Source: Escherichia phage E26. From it: 64,000 nucleotides of DNA. The position numbers were made by a program, and so were the translations under genes. Every line of letters begins with the position of its first letter. Within the stretch, counting starts at the first letter, position 1. This document shows positions 8,526 to 48,889 of the stretch, piece after piece. The stretch lies in sequence record MN655998.1; one strand, written 5' to 3'. The notes beneath the pieces were generated by a model. It was not told the origin of the DNA and did not search any database. It saw only the letters and a list, made by a program, of their open reading frames with translations.

Positions 8526-8839
8526 TATCCTAAAATCCTCACCTTGCGAACACAGATAGTATTGAGTTCTCGCCGTACCCGTTCTTTTTCATATTCAGGA
8601 ATTTTATATTCGATACCATCCCGAACAATTTCAGAAGACCGGATTATGCCAAATTTTCGTTTAGGTACAACCTTGTATTTCGGTTCACCTGCCAATAGAC
8701 TCTCACAATAATCTATCTGATCACACATTGACGCTAACGCAGCATCATGTGTTTCGCAAGTTAGGACGCGACCCTTCGCGTCCACTGAGTATTGAAAGAA
8801 TCCGTCTTTATCACGATAACATACAGCAAATACATGCAT
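8525..8839 (-). CDS. hypothetical protein (dda.1 position)
   Basis: ORF tiling. Confidence 0.45.
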   Translation of the reverse strand: MHVFAVCYRDKDGFFQYSVDAKGRVLTCETHDAALASMCDQIDYCESLLAGEPKYKVVPKRKFGIIRSSEIVRDGIEYKIPEYEKERVRRELNTICVRKVRILG

Positions 8840-9594
8840 TATAAACCTACCTTCGCTTTCATCAATTCAATCCACGACGCATCAATCGGAAGCCCGTATT
8901 TCACGCGTTCTTTTTGTGCTGGCGTTAAGTTCTCATACTTAGAAAGAGATTCAATCAAAACGCTGGTATATTTTAGCACGACTTCGGTATTGTTTGCAAT
9001 AGCCTTAAGTTTTTCTTCTTTCTTGTTGATTTCGCTAAGGGCTTGCTTGAGATCTGCAATTTTCTGATAACGTTCTTCCATACGGAAGAGAGTATTTTTA
9101 ATCGCTCGCTCGGCTGCCTCTGCTTTCTCCGGTTCGTTGTGCTTTTTGTGGCGCTCGATTGCTAATTTCTTTTCTTCGATTGCTATTTCCTGATTTTTGA
9201 TGCGATTCTCGTTAAGTTCGATCCACTCGATGTACTTCGCACGTAGGGCAATTTCATCATCAGAAAGTTTACCGTTAGTTCCTAGTTCCTGGATCTCTTT
9301 AAGAGATTCGATAGTGTGATTGCCACGGAAAGAATTGTATTTCAGTTTAACCGGAATTACATTGCCATCAACATATCCCAGATTGCAATCAATGCGCTCT
9401 AAGGAGAGTCCATCATCACCTTCACCGAAAGCCTCACCGGAATAGGCGCAATGAGTCTGTCGGTAAATGTTACGCACAGTGACTAAGCTCATAGAGAAGT
9501 CTTTGTTGCGACGTGAAGCACCAGCCATGATAGAGTTCAGCCGGAAAACAACCAGCGCCAATTCTTCGTTAGATTTAAAAGCAAACAGTTTCAT
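8839..9594 (-). CDS. hypothetical protein with degenerate HNH-like motif and long C-terminal coiled coil
   Basis: LSLERIDCNLGYVDGNVIPV...FRGNH then K/E-rich heptads; AGGAGAATCAA RBS. Confidence 0.45.
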   Translation of the reverse strand: MKLFAFKSNEELALVVFRLNSIMAGASRRNKDFSMSLVTVRNIYRQTHCAYSGEAFGEGDDGLSLERIDCNLGYVDGNVIPVKLKYNSFRGNHTIESLKEIQELGTNGKLSDDEIALRAKYIEWIELNENRIKNQEIAIEEKKLAIERHKKHNEPEKAEAAERAIKNTLFRMEERYQKIADLKQALSEINKKEEKLKAIANNTEVVLKYTSVLIESLSKYENLTPAQKERVKYGLPIDASWIELMKAKVGL

Positions 9595-9622
9595 AATTGA
9601 TTCTCCTTAGTTGGTATGTGTG

Positions 9623-9652
9623 TATTATTGTCTATCTGGTTTGTGCTGTCAA
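9623..9652 (-). promoter_or_regulatory. early promoter cassette
   Basis: TTGACA at 9647-9652 (rc); A/T-rich -10; conserved leader to AGGAGAATCAA-ATG. Confidence 0.45.
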
Positions 9653-9655
9653 CAC

Positions 9656-10159
9656 TTAAATTAAAGAAAATTTGTAAATCTCTATCAGATCGCCGTTACA
9701 CGCGTAAACTTCCTCGATCTCGTCAAGGATCATGGTCGTCCCTGTCTTGTATATGCACTCGCGCTCATCTGCCAACATAGCATACAAAGACAGTCGAGTA
9801 GTCGGATTGTCATACTCTTTAGACACCACTCGGTCAATAGCATGTTCGTAATAATTCATGCAAGGCTTGGTAGGTTTTATTGCAATAATCTTTCCTGTTG
9901 CATAAACATCGGTTGCAAAGTCCTCTGCTGTTGATTGCAGTGGCGTAAAGCTCATAGGACGCTCTACAACGAAAGAATCACCTACAATTAAGGTATCCAG
10001 CTTACGGCCTTCTCTTTTGCTCACACCGCGATACAAGGCTTCGTGATGCACTAACCGCTCGGTCTTTTCGATCAATCCATTAAGGATCGACATATCGATA
10101 TTTTCTTTAGAGTTCATCACTTCATCAATGATGTTAAGTTCTTCTGGTGTAAATTGCAT
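9656..10159 (-). CDS. putative ADP-ribosyltransferase (ModA/ModB-like)
   Basis: Ordered R (LYRGV), S-T (LQSTAEDF), E-x-E (ADEREC) triad; T4 mod position. Confidence 0.5.
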   Translation of the reverse strand: MQFTPEELNIIDEVMNSKENIDMSILNGLIEKTERLVHHEALYRGVSKREGRKLDTLIVGDSFVVERPMSFTPLQSTAEDFATDVYATGKIIAIKPTKPCMNYYEHAIDRVVSKEYDNPTTRLSLYAMLADERECIYKTGTTMILDEIEEVYACNGDLIEIYKFSLI

Positions 10160-10162
10160 AAT

Positions 10163-10192
10163 AAAAAAGCCTCCAATCTTTCGACGGGAGGC
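10163..10192 (-). promoter_or_regulatory. hairpin sequestering the GGAGG Shine-Dalgarno of the ADP-ribosyltransferase gene
   Basis: GCCTCC-N12-GGAGGC stem plus U-run; ATG at 10159. Confidence 0.4.
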
Positions 10193-10221
10193 ATAATAAA
10201 ACCATTATAGAGTAGTGTCAA
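10193..10221 (-). promoter_or_regulatory. early promoter (TTGACA-N17-TATTAT) initiating inside RBS-sequestering hairpin
   Basis: rc tgtcaa 10216-10221; -10 at 10193-10198. Confidence 0.4.
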
Positions 10222-10228
10222 CTAATTT

Positions 10229-10753
10229 TTAGTAGCCGCGTTCTTGACGGGCGAAGTTTTCAGCATTTTTCAGATAGTACAGAATAAAGAGTTCTTGAGC
10301 GTCAATACCCAGCGGGATCATCTTTGACAGAATGAAGTGGATCGCGTCCACAAATTCAAATTTCACTTCAAGCTGATCTTCAGGTGACAGTTCAGAGAAT
10401 TTACGCGATCGCGCTTCTCCGTGGTTCTTTTTCCACATTTTCCAGATTGCACTTGCATCTTTACCATTGGACATTCCACCCAGCGATGTGTAAAGCTCTC
10501 GTGTTTCGTCTGCGATAGCGTCATCCATCCGCTGCATCCAATCCAGCATTTCACCGCAAGTCTCTAGCTTAGTTGGATTTGGGACCCAATCAAATTTTTC
10601 GGATAATGCAACCTGCAAACCAGTTTGCATTTCGAGCATCACCTGAAACGGATCTTTACCTTCTGCAATCGCGTGATGATATGCGGCGATTGCCGCGTTA
10701 ATATCTTTTTCGTTAACCAGACCAGCACAAGAATTAAATTCTGACATATTCAC
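10229..10753 (-). CDS. 56: dCTP pyrophosphatase (MazG-like dCTPase gp56)
   Basis: DPFQVMLEMQ...KLET...SPEDQLEVKFEFVD...YYLKNAENFARQERGY matches T4 gp56. Confidence 0.85.
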   Translation of the reverse strand: MNMSEFNSCAGLVNEKDINAAIAAYHHAIAEGKDPFQVMLEMQTGLQVALSEKFDWVPNPTKLETCGEMLDWMQRMDDAIADETRELYTSLGGMSNGKDASAIWKMWKKNHGEARSRKFSELSPEDQLEVKFEFVDAIHFILSKMIPLGIDAQELFILYYLKNAENFARQERGY

Positions 10754-10761
10754 CTCATTAA

Positions 10762-11790
10762 TTAAAATTTACAATATTTCATAAACCGCATTTTAGCCAT
10801 CAGACCTTGTACGGTGTTCTCTTTGATGTATTCCATGATCTGGTCGCGTGTAGCGCCCTCGTCCTGAATCATGGCGTTAACGTCTTTAGAATGCCACGGG
10901 CAGCGATCCCACAAAACAATCTTTTCCCCTGCATTGATAAACTTTTCCAGTCGGTGCATTGTATCGGCAGACCGTGGTTCCGCATCAAGTACAAACACTC
11001 GCTGGTCTGGGAAAGGGATTTCATCTAATCCCAAAGTACCGCCAGTAATTGCACACCCGTTATCAATAAACAATGAATCGATCGGACCTTCTAAGAAATA
11101 CACCGGTTTACTCGGATCGGCGCGTTCAAGACCATAGACCTTACTCGCTAACTCATGAGTTTTAATCGTCATATATTTGGTCTTTCCGTAATCCTTTCTC
11201 AATGCTCGCCCCTGAATGGATTCTATCTTGTTCTCGCGGTTAAAGATAGGAATCACTAAACGCGGTTCCGGTTGCGGATTCTTGAAGGTATCCGCTTTAA
11301 TGTGATTTGCTACCTTTTGCCATTCTCTCGTGAAATACAGAAGATCCCATTTATCATGAGGGATGCAACGATCACTGACATACTTTATTATAGGATGATT
11401 AGCCGGAAGAGTATCTAATCTATCGCAGAAAGGCAATGTTTGCACTTTCTTAATCCCCGGCTTTTCTACCTTTTTCAGTGGCTTGAACGTAGTGTTCTTG
11501 TGATCGCCTTGTTCCTTCCGTCGTTCCATAAGCCATTCCCTGAATAGGTCCGGCTTATACTGTTTGAGAAATTCACCTAACGGCTGATTGTAGTTACAGT
11601 TGAAACATCCTGCTCGCAAACTATCCTTATAGGTATAGATACGGAATCGCGCTTGAGTATGATTTTTCTTTGAGTCACCGCAGATCGGACAACTACAGAC
11701 CAGCGTAAATGAGCTAGTATGCAACCGTTTAAAATTTCGTTCGCCGTATATGGCTTTTTCCGCTATTTCATAATCTGCGTAGTAAATCAT
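10762..11790 (-). CDS. 61: DNA primase gp61
   Basis: 342 aa; N-terminal zinc ribbon CSCPICGDS...CFNC; Toprim region; T4 gp61 length. Confidence 0.9.
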   Translation of the reverse strand: MIYYADYEIAEKAIYGERNFKRLHTSSFTLVCSCPICGDSKKNHTQARFRIYTYKDSLRAGCFNCNYNQPLGEFLKQYKPDLFREWLMERRKEQGDHKNTTFKPLKKVEKPGIKKVQTLPFCDRLDTLPANHPIIKYVSDRCIPHDKWDLLYFTREWQKVANHIKADTFKNPQPEPRLVIPIFNRENKIESIQGRALRKDYGKTKYMTIKTHELASKVYGLERADPSKPVYFLEGPIDSLFIDNGCAITGGTLGLDEIPFPDQRVFVLDAEPRSADTMHRLEKFINAGEKIVLWDRCPWHSKDVNAMIQDEGATRDQIMEYIKENTVQGLMAKMRFMKYCKF

Positions 11791-16264: not shown

Positions 16265-16492
16265 CTATTCAGTTAATCCGTAATACTTTAATTGCTTCAT
16301 TGTTATTCGATCTTTGTAGTGCTCTTGAATTAACTTTTTCATCGCATCAACATCGATCGTCACAAATACTTCGTTGCTGTGATTTCCGTGAACTTTCTTG
16401 AAATGCTCTATGCCTTCCTCACGTTCACGTTTAATCTTTTCAATGTCTCTCATAGTATATTTCTCACGTTGGCGGGTATCGTCACCCAACAC
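16265..16492 (-). CDS. hypothetical protein
   Basis: Only ORF between uvsX and 43. Confidence 0.45.
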   Translation of the reverse strand: MLGDDTRQREKYTMRDIEKIKREREEGIEHFKKVHGNHSNEVFVTIDVDAMKKLIQEHYKDRITMKQLKYYGLTE

Positions 16493-16514
16493 CCGCCATT
16501 ATACACACATTATC

Positions 16515-19193
16515 TTAAATGTCAAACAGGTCCGTAAGCGATGCCACCTTTTCATATTGCAGCTTTGCAGCCGTGGTAATGTTCTCAAGCGGTTTGACGA
16601 AAGTCTTATTAAACAACAAAGGCCAGTCTAACCACTTCAACACTTCTGATTCAATTTCTGGCGGAATACGAGTACCAGACAACCAACCAAAACAGATTTC
16701 TCCAAACGGATTTCGATCTTTAAGCGGTACAATCATAACCTTCTCGCCTTCACGAATCGGATCTAGTCCGAATTTTCTGGCATTACGATTATAACACAAT
16801 ACACTCTTAACCGCATACGGACAACCCTTAATCGGATACCCGTTTGAATCGCTGTATTTCTGTAGGTTGTTTGCCGATGATACCGCAGCAACCTCAAGAT
16901 AATCAAGTCTTCTAAATTCTTGCTCAAAAATACCGTAGTATTCCTGTAATGACTCTTCCCCTTCCTGCAACATACGGCGAATACATTCTTTCAGTGATTT
17001 CTGACATGCTTTAGGTGTAGAACTACGTTGTGTTTCCAAGCCCATGATTTTTAGCTTAGGTTCAGCAAAGCGCGTTCCTTCCATATCCCAAACATTAAGA
17101 GCATAACGCTTTTTACCAGTCCAGAATCCACCGATACCCGCAGATTTCAATGGAGGACCAGCAATTGCCTCACGGTCCATAAACATCAAGTGCTCATAGT
17201 TGTTCATGTACTCGCATAACTCGCGATATCCCTTGTCGATAATAGGTTCCATTCGATGTTTACCGAAATTATCAAGGAAGTCAACAAGTTTTTCGGTATC
17301 GTCGAAACGGTCTTCCCCGCCAACCTTATCAACAACATTGTTAACCAGCACATAAACGGAGTCAGTATCACAATAACGAACATATGCAAAATCAGTTGTT
17401 CCGCAAAGCTCGTTTAAGTATTCGTTAATCTTACGCTCAATCCACTGAATTGCAAGCTGACCGAACAGTGTGATCGCACTAGCGTTACGGAGATCATAAA
17501 AACGGAATTTAGGATTCCCCAACGCACCATAAAGGGAGTTGATCAAAACTTTTCGGGAAAGCTGGTTTGTATTGCACAAGATCGACTCGTCTTTACATTC
17601 TTCCAGCAATTTTTCTAGGGTATCTTTGCTTAATTCCAAAAGCATAGATTTAAACGCTTCATCGAAGTCATGACGCACTTCAACGCTATAGCTAATGGTT
17701 CCCCCATAAACATGATTTTCATCGTGTAGAATCGCTTTACAGAGTTCAGCATTGCGATCACATGCCAACATCATGTTTTTGTACTGCTTACGCTGATCGA
17801 ATACCTTTTTAATCTCAATCGGTACGATACCATGAATATCTTTTCGATACATCCATCCGTTAGGCGAGCAAGAATACTCATCACTCGGACGCGGGGCAGT
17901 TTTATTGATATACTCGTGCATCGGTGCAGCATCAAAAGATCCAGCGATAGTTTCGGGTGAAATATTTACCTGCCTAATTATTGAAGGATACAAACTCGTG
18001 AGATCGAAGCTCATCATCCAACGGTAAGCATTCGGCACAGGTTCTTTTACAAATGCGCCTGGATACGTCTGCTTAGGCTGTATCTTATTTTCCGGTACTA
18101 CTTTACCCTCTGCTTTCAGAGATCCGAAGATAATAGCATCCCATACTTTCATCGGATTATAAACATGGTTAAATTTAATCTTTGCATAGAAACATAGGCT
18201 ATACACCAGATCAATAAAACCACGCTTTTTATCAATCGCCAGCACACGGTCAACGTCGCCGATGTTATAATCGATGTAAAGTTGATGGTTGTCATCACGC
18301 AATTTCTTTAATGGACCATCATAATCAACCTTACCGATTCCTGTCTCATATTCAGCAACATAATCTAATGCATATGTTGGTTGAGTCGTAAAGCTAAATT
18401 TCTTGTACAGGTCAATATAATCAAGGCTTTCGATCCCCATGATCGTAAATGCTTCACGCTCGTTGCCAAAATCATCCTGTGAGATTCGGGATTTAATCTT
18501 ACCGCACGGGCTTAATCGGTTTGCCGTTCGACTTCCAAACTTATTACTGATACGCTTAATGATATATGGAATATCGAATGTTTCTGTGTTCCAGCCAGTG
18601 AAGCCAACTGGTCGGTTTTCCTCAAAGAATCGGATGTATTCTAATAGCAATTCATCTTCTGTATCATAGACGTTATAAACAACGCGCTCTACAATATCAG
18701 GTCGAAGAATAGATTTGCTTGCTTCCCAGATTTCACCGTTCTTTCCTTTCAAATCAAATACAAAGAAACGATCATGTACGGAATCATAATGCGTAATTGC
18801 ATCGATAGGATATTTCGCTTCTTCTGGTTTAGGAAATTCAGGTGCAGTGACCTCAATATCAACCCATGCTACACGGATTTTATTTCGGTCATATCGAATC
18901 TCTCCTTTATACGTATCGGACAGATAGGAGATGATAAAATCATCCATCCCTAGTGCCTCTTGCCCCATCTCCCCCATCTTTTTACGCCATTTGTTGGCCT
19001 CGTTCATAGATGGGAATTTTTTAGCAATGCAAGGCTTGCCATAGATATCTTTATAATTCGTAACCATACCAGGCGCGGCATGATGAAATAAAGTTGGCGT
19101 ATATTCAACGTAACGCTCTTGCTCTTGTCCAGCATCATCAATATAACGCTCGTAGATCTTATCACCTACTCGCTCACATGACAGAAAATACAT
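16515..19193 (-). CDS. 43: DNA polymerase gp43 (family B)
   Basis: SLYPSII, YGDTDS-like YCDTDSVY, exonuclease motifs; start at Met 11 after AAGGAG RBS. Confidence 0.95.
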   Translation of the reverse strand: MYFLSCERVGDKIYERYIDDAGQEQERYVEYTPTLFHHAAPGMVTNYKDIYGKPCIAKKFPSMNEANKWRKKMGEMGQEALGMDDFIISYLSDTYKGEIRYDRNKIRVAWVDIEVTAPEFPKPEEAKYPIDAITHYDSVHDRFFVFDLKGKNGEIWEASKSILRPDIVERVVYNVYDTEDELLLEYIRFFEENRPVGFTGWNTETFDIPYIIKRISNKFGSRTANRLSPCGKIKSRISQDDFGNEREAFTIMGIESLDYIDLYKKFSFTTQPTYALDYVAEYETGIGKVDYDGPLKKLRDDNHQLYIDYNIGDVDRVLAIDKKRGFIDLVYSLCFYAKIKFNHVYNPMKVWDAIIFGSLKAEGKVVPENKIQPKQTYPGAFVKEPVPNAYRWMMSFDLTSLYPSIIRQVNISPETIAGSFDAAPMHEYINKTAPRPSDEYSCSPNGWMYRKDIHGIVPIEIKKVFDQRKQYKNMMLACDRNAELCKAILHDENHVYGGTISYSVEVRHDFDEAFKSMLLELSKDTLEKLLEECKDESILCNTNQLSRKVLINSLYGALGNPKFRFYDLRNASAITLFGQLAIQWIERKINEYLNELCGTTDFAYVRYCDTDSVYVLVNNVVDKVGGEDRFDDTEKLVDFLDNFGKHRMEPIIDKGYRELCEYMNNYEHLMFMDREAIAGPPLKSAGIGGFWTGKKRYALNVWDMEGTRFAEPKLKIMGLETQRSSTPKACQKSLKECIRRMLQEGEESLQEYYGIFEQEFRRLDYLEVAAVSSANNLQKYSDSNGYPIKGCPYAVKSVLCYNRNARKFGLDPIREGEKVMIVPLKDRNPFGEICFGWLSGTRIPPEIESEVLKWLDWPLLFNKTFVKPLENITTAAKLQYEKVASLTDLFDI

Positions 19194-39035: not shown

Positions 39036-39524
39036 CTATCTTAATCTTTGTATAAATTGTTTCTTATACTTCTTCGTGATCTCTTCTCTTGTATCAGCGT
39101 CACAATAATCGAAACCTTCTGCGTCCATAATAGCAACCATCTCCGCGCGTGTCAAGCGTGAAAATCGTTTTACTTTATCAACAGCATATTGAGGATGTAA
39201 ATGATTGTTGGTGTAGTCTCCTTTGATGTAATTAACATAGTTTGTCGCCCAAACAACGAAATCAGCACCTAAAGCACCAACACCAAACCGTTTAAAGTCT
39301 CCGGTCAACGATCCTTCTAGGCGGTTGCAACACGAATGAAGCAATCCCCTTACGCGGCCTTGCCCTTTACCATCTAGATCGTGGTCGTGGTCAAGATGGT
39401 TTTTGCTCATATCCTCAAAAAGTGGCAATTGACAAAGGGGGCAAATGCCCCCCTGTTTTTCGAATAGTTCTTGTTTGTACTCTTTAGCACTCTTAGCAGT
39501 CAGTAACATAAATTCACCCTCCAA
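39036..39524 (-). CDS. 49: recombination endonuclease VII (Holliday junction resolvase gp49)
   Basis: CPLCQ...HLDHDHDLDG...RVRGLLHSCCN matches T4 endo VII. Confidence 0.9.
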   Translation of the reverse strand: MEGEFMLLTAKSAKEYKQELFEKQGGICPLCQLPLFEDMSKNHLDHDHDLDGKGQGRVRGLLHSCCNRLEGSLTGDFKRFGVGALGADFVVWATNYVNYIKGDYTNNHLHPQYAVDKVKRFSRLTRAEMVAIMDAEGFDYCDADTREEITKKYKKQFIQRLR

Positions 39525-39533
39525 AGAAGGTAT

Positions 39534-39827
39534 TTAACCATGAATCTTGTTTTTGACTACAAAGGATCGGAACTCATCAAAGCCACCAATATAATCACCA
39601 TCATAGAAAATCTGCGGCATGGTGGCAATAACTTCTACCCCTGCGCGATCCTGAATATCGGCAATGATAGAATCAATCTTTACGGGGCGACCGTTTTCGT
39701 CAACACCATCATTAACCGGAATGTAGATGTAAGGGATCTTACGCGATTCACAAAGGCGCTTTGCATTCTGGCAATACTTACAGTTGTAACCTTCAAAACC
39801 AAAAATTTCTACCATATTATACCTCAA
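39534..39827 (-). CDS. nrdC: glutaredoxin/thioredoxin-like protein (NrdC-like)
   Basis: CKYCQNAKRL active site; PQIFYDGDYIGGFDEF; 97 aa. Confidence 0.8.
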   Translation of the reverse strand: MRYNMVEIFGFEGYNCKYCQNAKRLCESRKIPYIYIPVNDGVDENGRPVKIDSIIADIQDRAGVEVIATMPQIFYDGDYIGGFDEFRSFVVKNKIHG

Positions 39828-48532: not shown

Positions 48533-48821
48533 GTTCTCGATTCTCCATATTATGCAACAGAACAAATTGTTGTGCGGCATATCCCCCCATAATAAAACAC
48601 TGCCTAGAATCCATACATTTACTACGAGCATACATCTTCATAATATGGGCATGAAATTTCTGGCTGGTTTCAATGGAAGGAGATATTTTGTTTACATATA
48701 CTATCATTGCGCCGTCGAAATAATCAGTAAAGTCACCAGTTGGATCATATTGATCAGCACTGACACTTCCGACCGCAGTCAAGCATATTGCCGCTGTTAG
48801 AGTTTTACGAATAAATGACAT
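48519..48821 (-). CDS. putative secreted protein
   Basis: N-terminal signal peptide MSFIRKTLTAAICLTAVGSVSA; TATAAATA late-promoter motif upstream. Confidence 0.4.
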   Translation of the reverse strand: MSFIRKTLTAAICLTAVGSVSADQYDPTGDFTDYFDGAMIVYVNKISPSIETSQKFHAHIMKMYARSKCMDSRQCFIMGGYAAQQFVLLHNMENREHEIQ

Positions 48822-48854
48822 AAGTCATTCCCCCAGATTGAAAATATTCAGTTA

Positions 48855-48862
48855 TATTTATA
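48855..48862 (-). promoter_or_regulatory. late-promoter-like motif TATAAATA
   Basis: About 35 nt upstream of secreted-protein ORF 48519..48821. Confidence 0.35.
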
Positions 48863-48889
48863 ATCCGGGGCTTTATTTATGATTAACTC

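Follow-up and report, generated by a model that had tools for sequence, protein, structure and literature searches.

Introduction

Several phage genes are known in which the ribosome-binding site (RBS) is sequestered in a hairpin that harbors an internal promoter, namely T4 e, soc, 49, I-TevI and segB and Aeh1 mobE (PMC3014915, PMC2988022). In T4 e, soc and related cases, the genes are late genes and a gp55-type late promoter (TATAAATA) is located inside the RBS-masking hairpin, resulting in a late-on switch (PMC3014915, PMC2988022).

A second class of compact regulatory element, the promoter-early stem-loop (PeSL), has been described in RB49 and phi1 (Arbiol et al. 2010, PMC2839356; Comeau et al. 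2014, PMC4122927). According to the text of Arbiol et al. (PMC2839356), RB49 contains about 51 PeSLs, each combining a strong sigma70-like promoter with a stem-loop, which can occupy five positions relative to the promoter, one subclass having it downstream of the -10. The same text reports that these cassettes carry strong promoters, that PeSLs 211/210 and 206/205 were studied experimentally, and that PeSL211/210, the single stem-loop tested, cut lacZ expression about as much as a strong terminator. It further reports recombination between PeSLs and their main association with ORFans, hyperplastic regions and indels (PMC2839356).

For the region between gene 56 and modB of RB49, two predictions have been published, the early promoter Pe:9496 (9446-9496) and the TransTerm terminator "modB<--56" (9430-9453, score 100, 10-bp stem) (Nolan et al. 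2006, PMC1524935, Additional files 3 and 6). The early promoters of these phages also have an A-rich region at -40 to -44 (Nolan et al. 2006, PMC1524935). Here, we analyze the corresponding locus of Escherichia phage E26 and compare it to both classes.

Results

Anatomy of the 56-modB region

We analyzed a 64,000-nt stretch of the E26 genome (MN655998.1), hereafter the window. The 1.5 kb around the cassette share 99.9% identity with phage ELT4 and 98.7% with RB49, and all close DNA matches of this region are Krischvirus, the T4-related "pseudo-T-even", RB49-like phages. The features of the locus, in the direction of transcription, are the following.

11790-10762, minus strand: primase gene 61
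10229-10753, minus strand: gene 56 (dCTPase/NTP pyrophosphohydrolase), final gene of the unit proposed to end at the hairpin
10231-10229, minus strand: TAA stop codon of gene 56
10228-10160, minus strand: 56-modB intergenic region, 69 nt
10222-10228, minus strand: A-rich, UP-element-like stretch AAATTAG, after the gene 56 TAA and abutting the -35
10193-10221, minus strand: early sigma70-type promoter, with -35 TTGACA (10221-10216), 17-nt spacer and -10 TATTAT (10198-10193)
10169-10192, minus strand: hairpin, GCCUCC / C.U mismatch / GUC-GAAA-GAU / GGAGGC
10192-10187, minus strand: 5' arm of the hairpin, GCCTCC, starting at the first base after the -10
10186-10175, minus strand: 12-nt hairpin interior (C.U mismatch, then 3 bp, GUC/GAU, and GAAA tetraloop)
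10186 (C, 7 nt after the -10) or 10185 (G, 8 nt after), minus strand: predicted transcription start, from promoter geometry and the numbering of the Nolan model
10174-10169, minus strand: 3' arm of the hairpin, GGAGGC, containing the Shine-Dalgarno sequence (SD)
10170-10174, minus strand: SD GGAGG of the modB-like gene, annotated as RBS in Makalu_001 and _002
10160-10168, minus strand: U-tract T6 (10168-10163) plus ATT, being both terminator tail and SD-to-ATG spacer
10159, minus strand: ATG of modB
9656-10159, minus strand: modB-like gene (167-aa ModA/ModB-like ADP-ribosyltransferase), the regulated gene
Next genes after modB, in minus-strand order: srd, Y01A and dda

The gene downstream of the hairpin had been described in a first-pass annotation of this DNA as ADP-ribosyltransferase-like. 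This is in agreement with our searches, in which its product matched phrog_832 ("RNA polymerase ADP-ribosylase") with an E value of 1e-20 and was ~30% identical to annotated ModA/ModB proteins of T4-like phages. Since the Pfam search of this product gave zero matches, PHROGs and tblastn were needed for the assignment. Alignments with the homologues begin at residue 2, in favor of the ATG at 10159 as start codon. In the neighboring srd locus, the Srd-like protein (8839-9594, minus) matched phrog_1400 (Srd anti-sigma factor; E = 1.7e-73). In addition, its N-terminal half matched PHROG families of HNH endonucleases and of endonuclease VII (E = 1e-10 to 1e-12), a hint that the protein may derive from a nuclease fold.

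The hairpin has the features of an intrinsic terminator

The GGAGG SD reported to lie in the 3' arm of a GCCUCC-N12-GGAGGC hairpin followed by a U-run is indeed present. The hairpin folds at -15 kcal/mol with an ensemble frequency of 84% and a z-score of -4.29, and none of 200 dinucleotide shuffles folded as well. Its stem comprises six outer base pairs, five of them G-C, and three inner base pairs closed by the GAAA loop, and is followed by U6AUU. Starting 36 nt after the stop codon of gene 56, it thus has the features of a rho-independent terminator, i.e., a GC-rich stem-loop directly before a U-tract and downstream of a gene. A terminator is annotated at the hairpin by the depositors of Ec_Makalu_001, _002 and _003, and one is also among the features under the match of vB_Eco_TB34 to the cassette region. 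Our simple terminator scan missed the hairpin only because of its loop rule (3-8 nt). Since the reverse strand has no T-tail, the terminator would be unidirectional. No convincing minus-strand terminator was found in the scan between the promoters at ~12.8-13.0 kb and the hairpin, and an Rfam scan of 9500-10900 at E <= 1 gave zero matches.

The SD of modB is separated from the ATG by 10 nt, which is 2-3 nt above the stereotyped spacing of the other genes of the window. Two stereotyped translation-initiation regions (TIRs) recur among the minus-strand genes of the window: most early cassettes are followed by AAGGAGAAUCAAAAUG, while a different group of genes has GAGGAUUAUAUUAUG. The TIR of modB (GGAGGCUUUUUUAUUAUG) conforms to neither.

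A near-consensus early promoter abuts the 5' arm

The modB promoter agrees with the consensus at 11 of 12 positions and reached the joint top score in a scan of 7-13 kb. In the model of Nolan et al., its HMMer score is 11.3, which is mid to low in the range of the family. The depositors of the GEC-3S record also annotate a promoter at this cassette. Applying an offset of +739, Pe:9496 corresponds to 10185-10235 of the window and the "modB<--56" terminator to 10169-10192, so that the two overlap by 8 nt. The RB49 tables of Nolan et al. list both parts separately, and the portion of that paper's text available to us discusses neither the overlap nor the location of the SD within the stem. A literature search on Krischvirus transcriptomics returned nothing relevant.

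In the Nolan numbering, -7 is the last T of the -10; position 0 then falls on C 10186, and G 10185 comes next. In the paralogous cassettes, the base equivalent to the start is an A, within ...CCCATCGAAAC. From the sequence, we infer a start at 10186/10185, i.e., just 3' of the 5' arm, and the whole 5' arm would thus be excluded from RNA initiated at this promoter. The first-pass annotation had reported a TTGACA-N17-TATTAT promoter with a start past the 5' arm of the hairpin. Promoter and location are as described there, and so is the predicted exclusion of the 5' arm; the promoter directly abuts this arm, however, which places the expected start just 3' of it and not in the middle of the hairpin. 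The TATAAT at 10208-10203 was also considered as a functional -10 and rejected; it is without a usable -35 and is destroyed in phage JSE, though the cassette is kept.

Exclusion of the 5' arm is predicted to unmask the SD

Unmasking was measured as the cost of opening the ribosome landing pad (-19 to +13) in the read-through RNA versus the promoter-initiated RNA. In every folded leader containing the 5' arm, the probability of the modB SD being unpaired was ~0 and the opening of the ribosome site cost ~15 kcal/mol. In the leader starting at 10186/10185, the SD was partly open (mean unpaired probability of ~0.43) and the cost was ~4.4-4.5 kcal/mol. These computations support two earlier proposals: that read-through RNA is terminated or untranslatable, its SD being fully paired and the U-run after the stem making a canonical intrinsic terminator, and that RNA started at the promoter is devoid of the 5' arm and exposes the RBS.

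We then compared this effect to that of other units. The modB unmasking of 10.1 kcal/mol ranked first among the 34 sigma70-type units of the window (median 2.2, sd 2.7) and exceeded all 33 further units found in RB49 62-162 kb, where the maximum was 5.8. It is thus the largest among the 67 sigma70-type promoter-to-gene units of the RB49-type genome, and modB alone among the 67 has its G-rich arm on the 3' side, where it doubles as the SD. By the opening energy of its TIR in the read-through context, modB ranked only 9th among 116 genes. A rule that all cassettes unmask their SD was discarded, the median effect being only 2.2 kcal/mol within the window and 0.5 kcal/mol for the remaining genome. 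By this modeling, the SD-in-stem arrangement is real and unique among the early cassettes of the genome, and is not a general property of PeSLs.

Two other arrangements were observed in the window. At 16453-16525 (minus), a 62-aa ORF is preceded by a consensus promoter (TTGACA-16-TATAAT) and, directly after this promoter, a hairpin of -21.5 kcal/mol (GGCGGGUGUUGG...CGAUACCCGCC) with no U-tract; the predicted start of this cassette is located inside the 5' arm, and its unmasking (7.6 kcal/mol) is the third in the window. In five minus-strand units, with the -35 at 60807, 47864, 46622, 45450 and 34383, a canonical terminator lies upstream of the -35, and a long-range pairing is predicted between its U-rich tail (UUUUUGUUUUU) and the purine-rich leader and SD (AAGGAGAAUCAAAA). 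Such a pairing between tail and leader would be predicted to mask the SD in the read-through RNA only; the effect is small (3-5 kcal/mol) and may reflect base composition alone.

The locus could also be read as a plain terminator and a plain promoter packed tightly together. The hairpin would then serve only as terminator and 3'-end stabilizer of the 61-56 mRNA, the SD in its arm would be a coincidental compaction, and masking would be unselected as almost nothing reads through. The TransTerm score of 100 and the canonical U6 tail are consistent with this, as are the long SD spacing of modB, which varies from 9 to 11 nt with the length of the T-run, and the fact that the other PeSL terminators of the window have their SD outside the stem. 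Moreover, the C-rich stretch after the -10 in this family (ACnCCC) is naturally complementary to GGAG, and a CCUCC/GGAGG stem therefore easily arises by chance. This reading leaves aside, however, that modB is the sole unit of 67 with a G-rich 3' arm as SD and with the largest unmasking in the genome, and that in effect size it equals two bona fide RBS-masking switches of this genome, described below. Plain termination and masking predict an identical sequence and are thus inseparable by computation; on balance, we find the former rather unlikely to be the whole explanation, while giving it real weight.

Comparison with soc/e-type late switches

The modB cassette resembles the T4 soc/e class in that, by computation, its SD is enclosed in a helix in RNA initiated upstream, and in that RNA from the internal promoter, with a predicted start at 10186/10185, would be devoid of the 5' strand and translatable. 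The window also contains two candidates with which it can be compared directly. The first is the homologue of rI (lysis inhibition), at 48821-48880 (minus), where a 5' arm (CCCCGGAUU) lies directly 5' of a late motif TATAAATA (48862-48855). The late motif is thus located between the two hairpin arms, the 5' arm sharing only its first T, while the SD is covered by the 3' arm (AAUCUGGGG) and the AUG by a second, small hairpin. The opening energy of the rI TIR is the highest of the 116 genes and falls from 24 to 10 kcal/mol for RNA from the predicted late start. The second is the homologue of gene 49 (endonuclease VII), at 39509-39540 (minus), whose SD is contained in an ACCUUC-UUUG-GAGGGU hairpin directly downstream of a late-promoter-like TTAAATA (at 39537); here, the opening energy is 16.6 kcal/mol and, in the predicted late transcript, 4.5 kcal/mol. 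The gene 49 homologue appears to conserve the classical T4 gene 49 arrangement and, by these predictions, rI and gene 49 are genuine soc/e-type late switches within the same window. The computed unmasking is comparable in the three cases (rI, 14.3 kcal/mol; gene 49, 12.1 kcal/mol; modB, 10.1-10.3 kcal/mol).

According to the first-pass annotation, the modB locus follows the same logic as T4 soc and e. This would imply a temporal switch: early RNA reading through from upstream could not be translated, and the gene would stay off until the internal promoter fired at another time. The geometry does speak for such a switch, since it is that of soc/e, gene 49 and I-TevI, i.e., an SD in a helix and a promoter that removes the 5' strand. 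However, the soc/e class has late (gp55, TATAAATA) or middle promoters and, according to the reviews, consists of late genes, whereas the modB promoter is a near-consensus sigma70 promoter, listed among the RB49 early promoters, in front of a gene of early type, ModA and ModB being early host-takeover functions. No late motif TATAAATA was found on the minus strand within 38 kb upstream of the modB hairpin, the only two of this strand in the window being at 48862 and 59024. Similarly, the RB49 late-promoter list of Nolan et al. has 48756 as its first entry and, among the entries listed, includes no minus-strand late site near modB. Because the internal promoter is early, the cassette is not a T4 soc/e temporal switch; as read-through from upstream would also be early, the two RNA forms would not be separated in time. 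Finally, the long soc/e RNAs persist untranslated, whereas the modB hairpin, with U6 after it, is predicted to be a strong terminator, so that most long RNAs should end there. The claim of a shared logic is not supported, and we consider a temporal switch at modB very improbable. As judged from the sequence, the mechanism of the modB cassette would be like that of soc/e, but it differs in promoter class and temporal meaning and would not be a member of the class.

Conservation of the cassette across relatives

Fifty-nine phage records contain the intergenic region. Over the part that matched, identity in these Krischvirus records was 95.7-100%. A set of 15 distinct sequences was then compared: none differed in the two hexamers, the two 6-nt arms or the SD, and variation is confined to the spacer, the length of the T-run and two interior positions. 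Of the interior changes, C.U to C.C is neutral for the structure and G.U to A-U improves it. Among Krischvirus isolates, every substitution falls in the promoter spacer except one at 10185, where the G-to-A change of MIZ4 converts a G.U pair into A-U and keeps a purine at the predicted start. Because the outer stem is invariant, the structure is without covariation support. The T-run is T5 in Phi1, Makalu001, GoldenSnicker and OZ035808, T6 in the window and T7 in the contig L018 described below, and the SD-to-ATG spacing varies with it between 9 and 11 nt across relatives. This spacing is long and variable, and it may be the U-tract rather than the SD geometry that is constrained.

Outside Krischvirus, DNA similarity ends exactly at the stop codon of gene 56 and the protein identity of modB falls from at least 95% to less than 35%, indicating that the 56-modB junction is lineage-specific. 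The exact modB hairpin was found elsewhere only at the same locus in two Krischvirus contigs, which gives no evidence of a stem-loop that is mobile on its own.

The only intermediate found is the IMG/VR contig L018 (IMGVR_UViG_3300005711_000037), whose ModB is 75% identical. Compared to the window, its coding DNA is 72% identical in gene 56 and 71% in modB, the 56-modB intergenic region 94% and the next cassette (modB-srd) 97%. Within the 56-modB intergenic region, L018 differs in the spacer and the T-run and at the position that is mismatched anyway (C.U to C.C). The conserved island reaches ~50 nt into both flanking genes, synonymous and third codon positions included. More generally, over 9560-10753 of the window, both intergenic cassettes and ~50 nt of adjoining coding DNA are 94-100% identical in L018, and the first 40 nt of gene 56 are 100% identical as well. 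This suggests that such gene-boundary islands may act as recombination linkers.

In JSE (L004 524-1500) and G37-3 (L005 515-1500), a 0.9-kb insertion carrying a 306-aa HNH homing-endonuclease gene lies between gene 56 and the cassette. The HNH gene has a divergent orientation, its 3' end overlapping with the end of gene 56 on the other strand. A distance of 56 nt separates the end of the insert from the -35 downstream of it, and homology to the window resumes at the -35 itself; the A-rich, UP-like stretch is thereby replaced, and everything from the -35 to the ATG is intact.

Since the conserved island extends into flanking coding DNA, recombination at a cassette linker is possible instead of selection on the hairpin, and the L018 island is equally compatible with the PeSL recombination-linker model and with selection on RNA structure. 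Taken further, the cassette could be foremost a linker at the DNA level, conserved as a homology patch for swapping flanking genes, with secondary effects on RNA. Besides the L018 islands and the position of the JSE/G37-3 insertion, the recombination between PeSLs reported in the text of Arbiol et al. (PMC2839356) is in line with this. Such a linker leaves unexplained, however, why the substitutions in the island avoid the hexamers, the arms and the SD and yet strike the spacer, and modB and gene 56 are conserved genes rather than the ORFans of hyperplastic regions. It would, in any case, be compatible with a regulatory role. We consider it quite improbable that linkage is the foremost function.

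The cassette has the composition of a PeSL

We finally compared the locus to the PeSLs. The window contains ~34-40 similar units that share common -35/-10 hexamers and CCC(A/G)TCGAAA(C/G) after the -10, and all PeSL subclasses are seen in its catalogue of promoter-to-ATG units. The modB cassette belongs to the same phage lineage and has a near-consensus sigma70 promoter in the intergenic region between the gene 56 stop codon and the modB ATG. Like a PeSL, it runs from a stop codon in an A/T-rich stretch (the TAA, with CTAAAAATTAG directly before TTGACA) through the promoter and a stable stem-loop, for which a role as terminator/attenuator has been proposed in PeSLs, to an SD and start codon at the 3' end (GGAGG and ATG). 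Its sequence after the -10 (CCCGTCGAAAG) resembles the family motif CCCATCGAAAC, and its stem-loop fits the subclass downstream of the -10, although the 3' arm reaches past the predicted start. With regard to the preference of PeSLs for ORFans, hyperplastic regions and indels, the genes flanking the modB cassette are conserved, but JSE and G37-3 have the homing-endonuclease insertion at its upstream edge, and L018 displays mosaic conservation around it.

However, unlike in PeSLs, the 3' arm is the SD itself and the stem spans the start site instead of preceding the start. The stem is CCUCC/GGAGG, whereas typical PeSLs have GGGG...CCCC, and the cassette flanks conserved genes (56 and modB) and not ORFans in a hyperplastic region. 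In the parts of the PeSL papers' text at hand, the SD is placed only at the 3' end of the cassette and masking of the ribosome site is unmentioned. On these features, rather than by the authors' own count, the modB element would be better filed as a PeSL terminator/promoter cassette.

Discussion

We propose that the 56-modB region is a PeSL-type composite cassette, in which the intrinsic terminator of the upstream early unit is overlapped by a strong sigma70 early promoter for the modB-like gene. We estimate the probability of this reading at roughly 60%. It builds on the sequence anatomy, the folding energetics, the published predictions and the conservation of the region.

In this model, the early unit that starts from the promoters near 12.8-13.0 kb and runs through genes 61 and 56 would end at the hairpin. 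A polymerase arriving from upstream would transcribe both arms, the 10-bp hairpin with its U6 tail would form, and transcription would mostly terminate. In RNA escaping termination, the SD would be locked in the stem and poorly translated. A polymerase starting at 10186/10185, on the other hand, would synthesize an RNA that cannot form the hairpin, so that it would not terminate and its ribosome site would be open. The overlapping promoter would in this way restart transcription for modB and the downstream genes, and modB expression would depend only on its own early promoter. Start site, termination efficiency and translational effect are what we infer here from the sequence and its folding. 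The cassette would thus provide transcriptional and translational insulation rather than an early-to-late switch. Most likely, according to this model, the hairpin is first a terminator for the 61-56 unit and the burial of the SD a second lock or fail-safe. Since the terminator is located downstream of the promoter, the promoter would be unshielded from occlusion by incoming polymerase, which would make the cassette a weaker insulator than those with a terminator upstream of the -35.

A more elaborate possibility is an "inverted-polarity" soc/e switch, with an early promoter placed in a combined terminator and RBS mask. A potentially toxic ADP-ribosyltransferase would then be made only from its own UP-element-bearing promoter and never from read-through. 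If this enzyme or Alt shut off such promoters through modification of the RNA polymerase alpha subunit, as T4 ModA does, the cassette would be a self-limiting pulse generator, and the U-tract might enhance translation by binding S1, the protein that the T4 homologue modifies. We offer this as a speculation that is unlikely to be correct.

The composite cassette that we favor is not a new mechanism and opens no new question: each component as well as the composite PeSL class has already been published, and RBS masking, proposed here as a second lock, is an extra twist. Should the cassette function as predicted, the use of a promoter within an RBS-masking hairpin, well known from T4, would not be restricted to late promoters. 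The mask would be merged with an intrinsic terminator into a 69-nt insulator acting on both transcription and translation, which would reset expression between two early units. Such an element could be of use as a compact part for synthetic biology and for the annotation of T4-like phages. Overall, PeSL cassettes have so far been discussed mainly as recombination linkers, and the modB case would add a functional nuance to this view.
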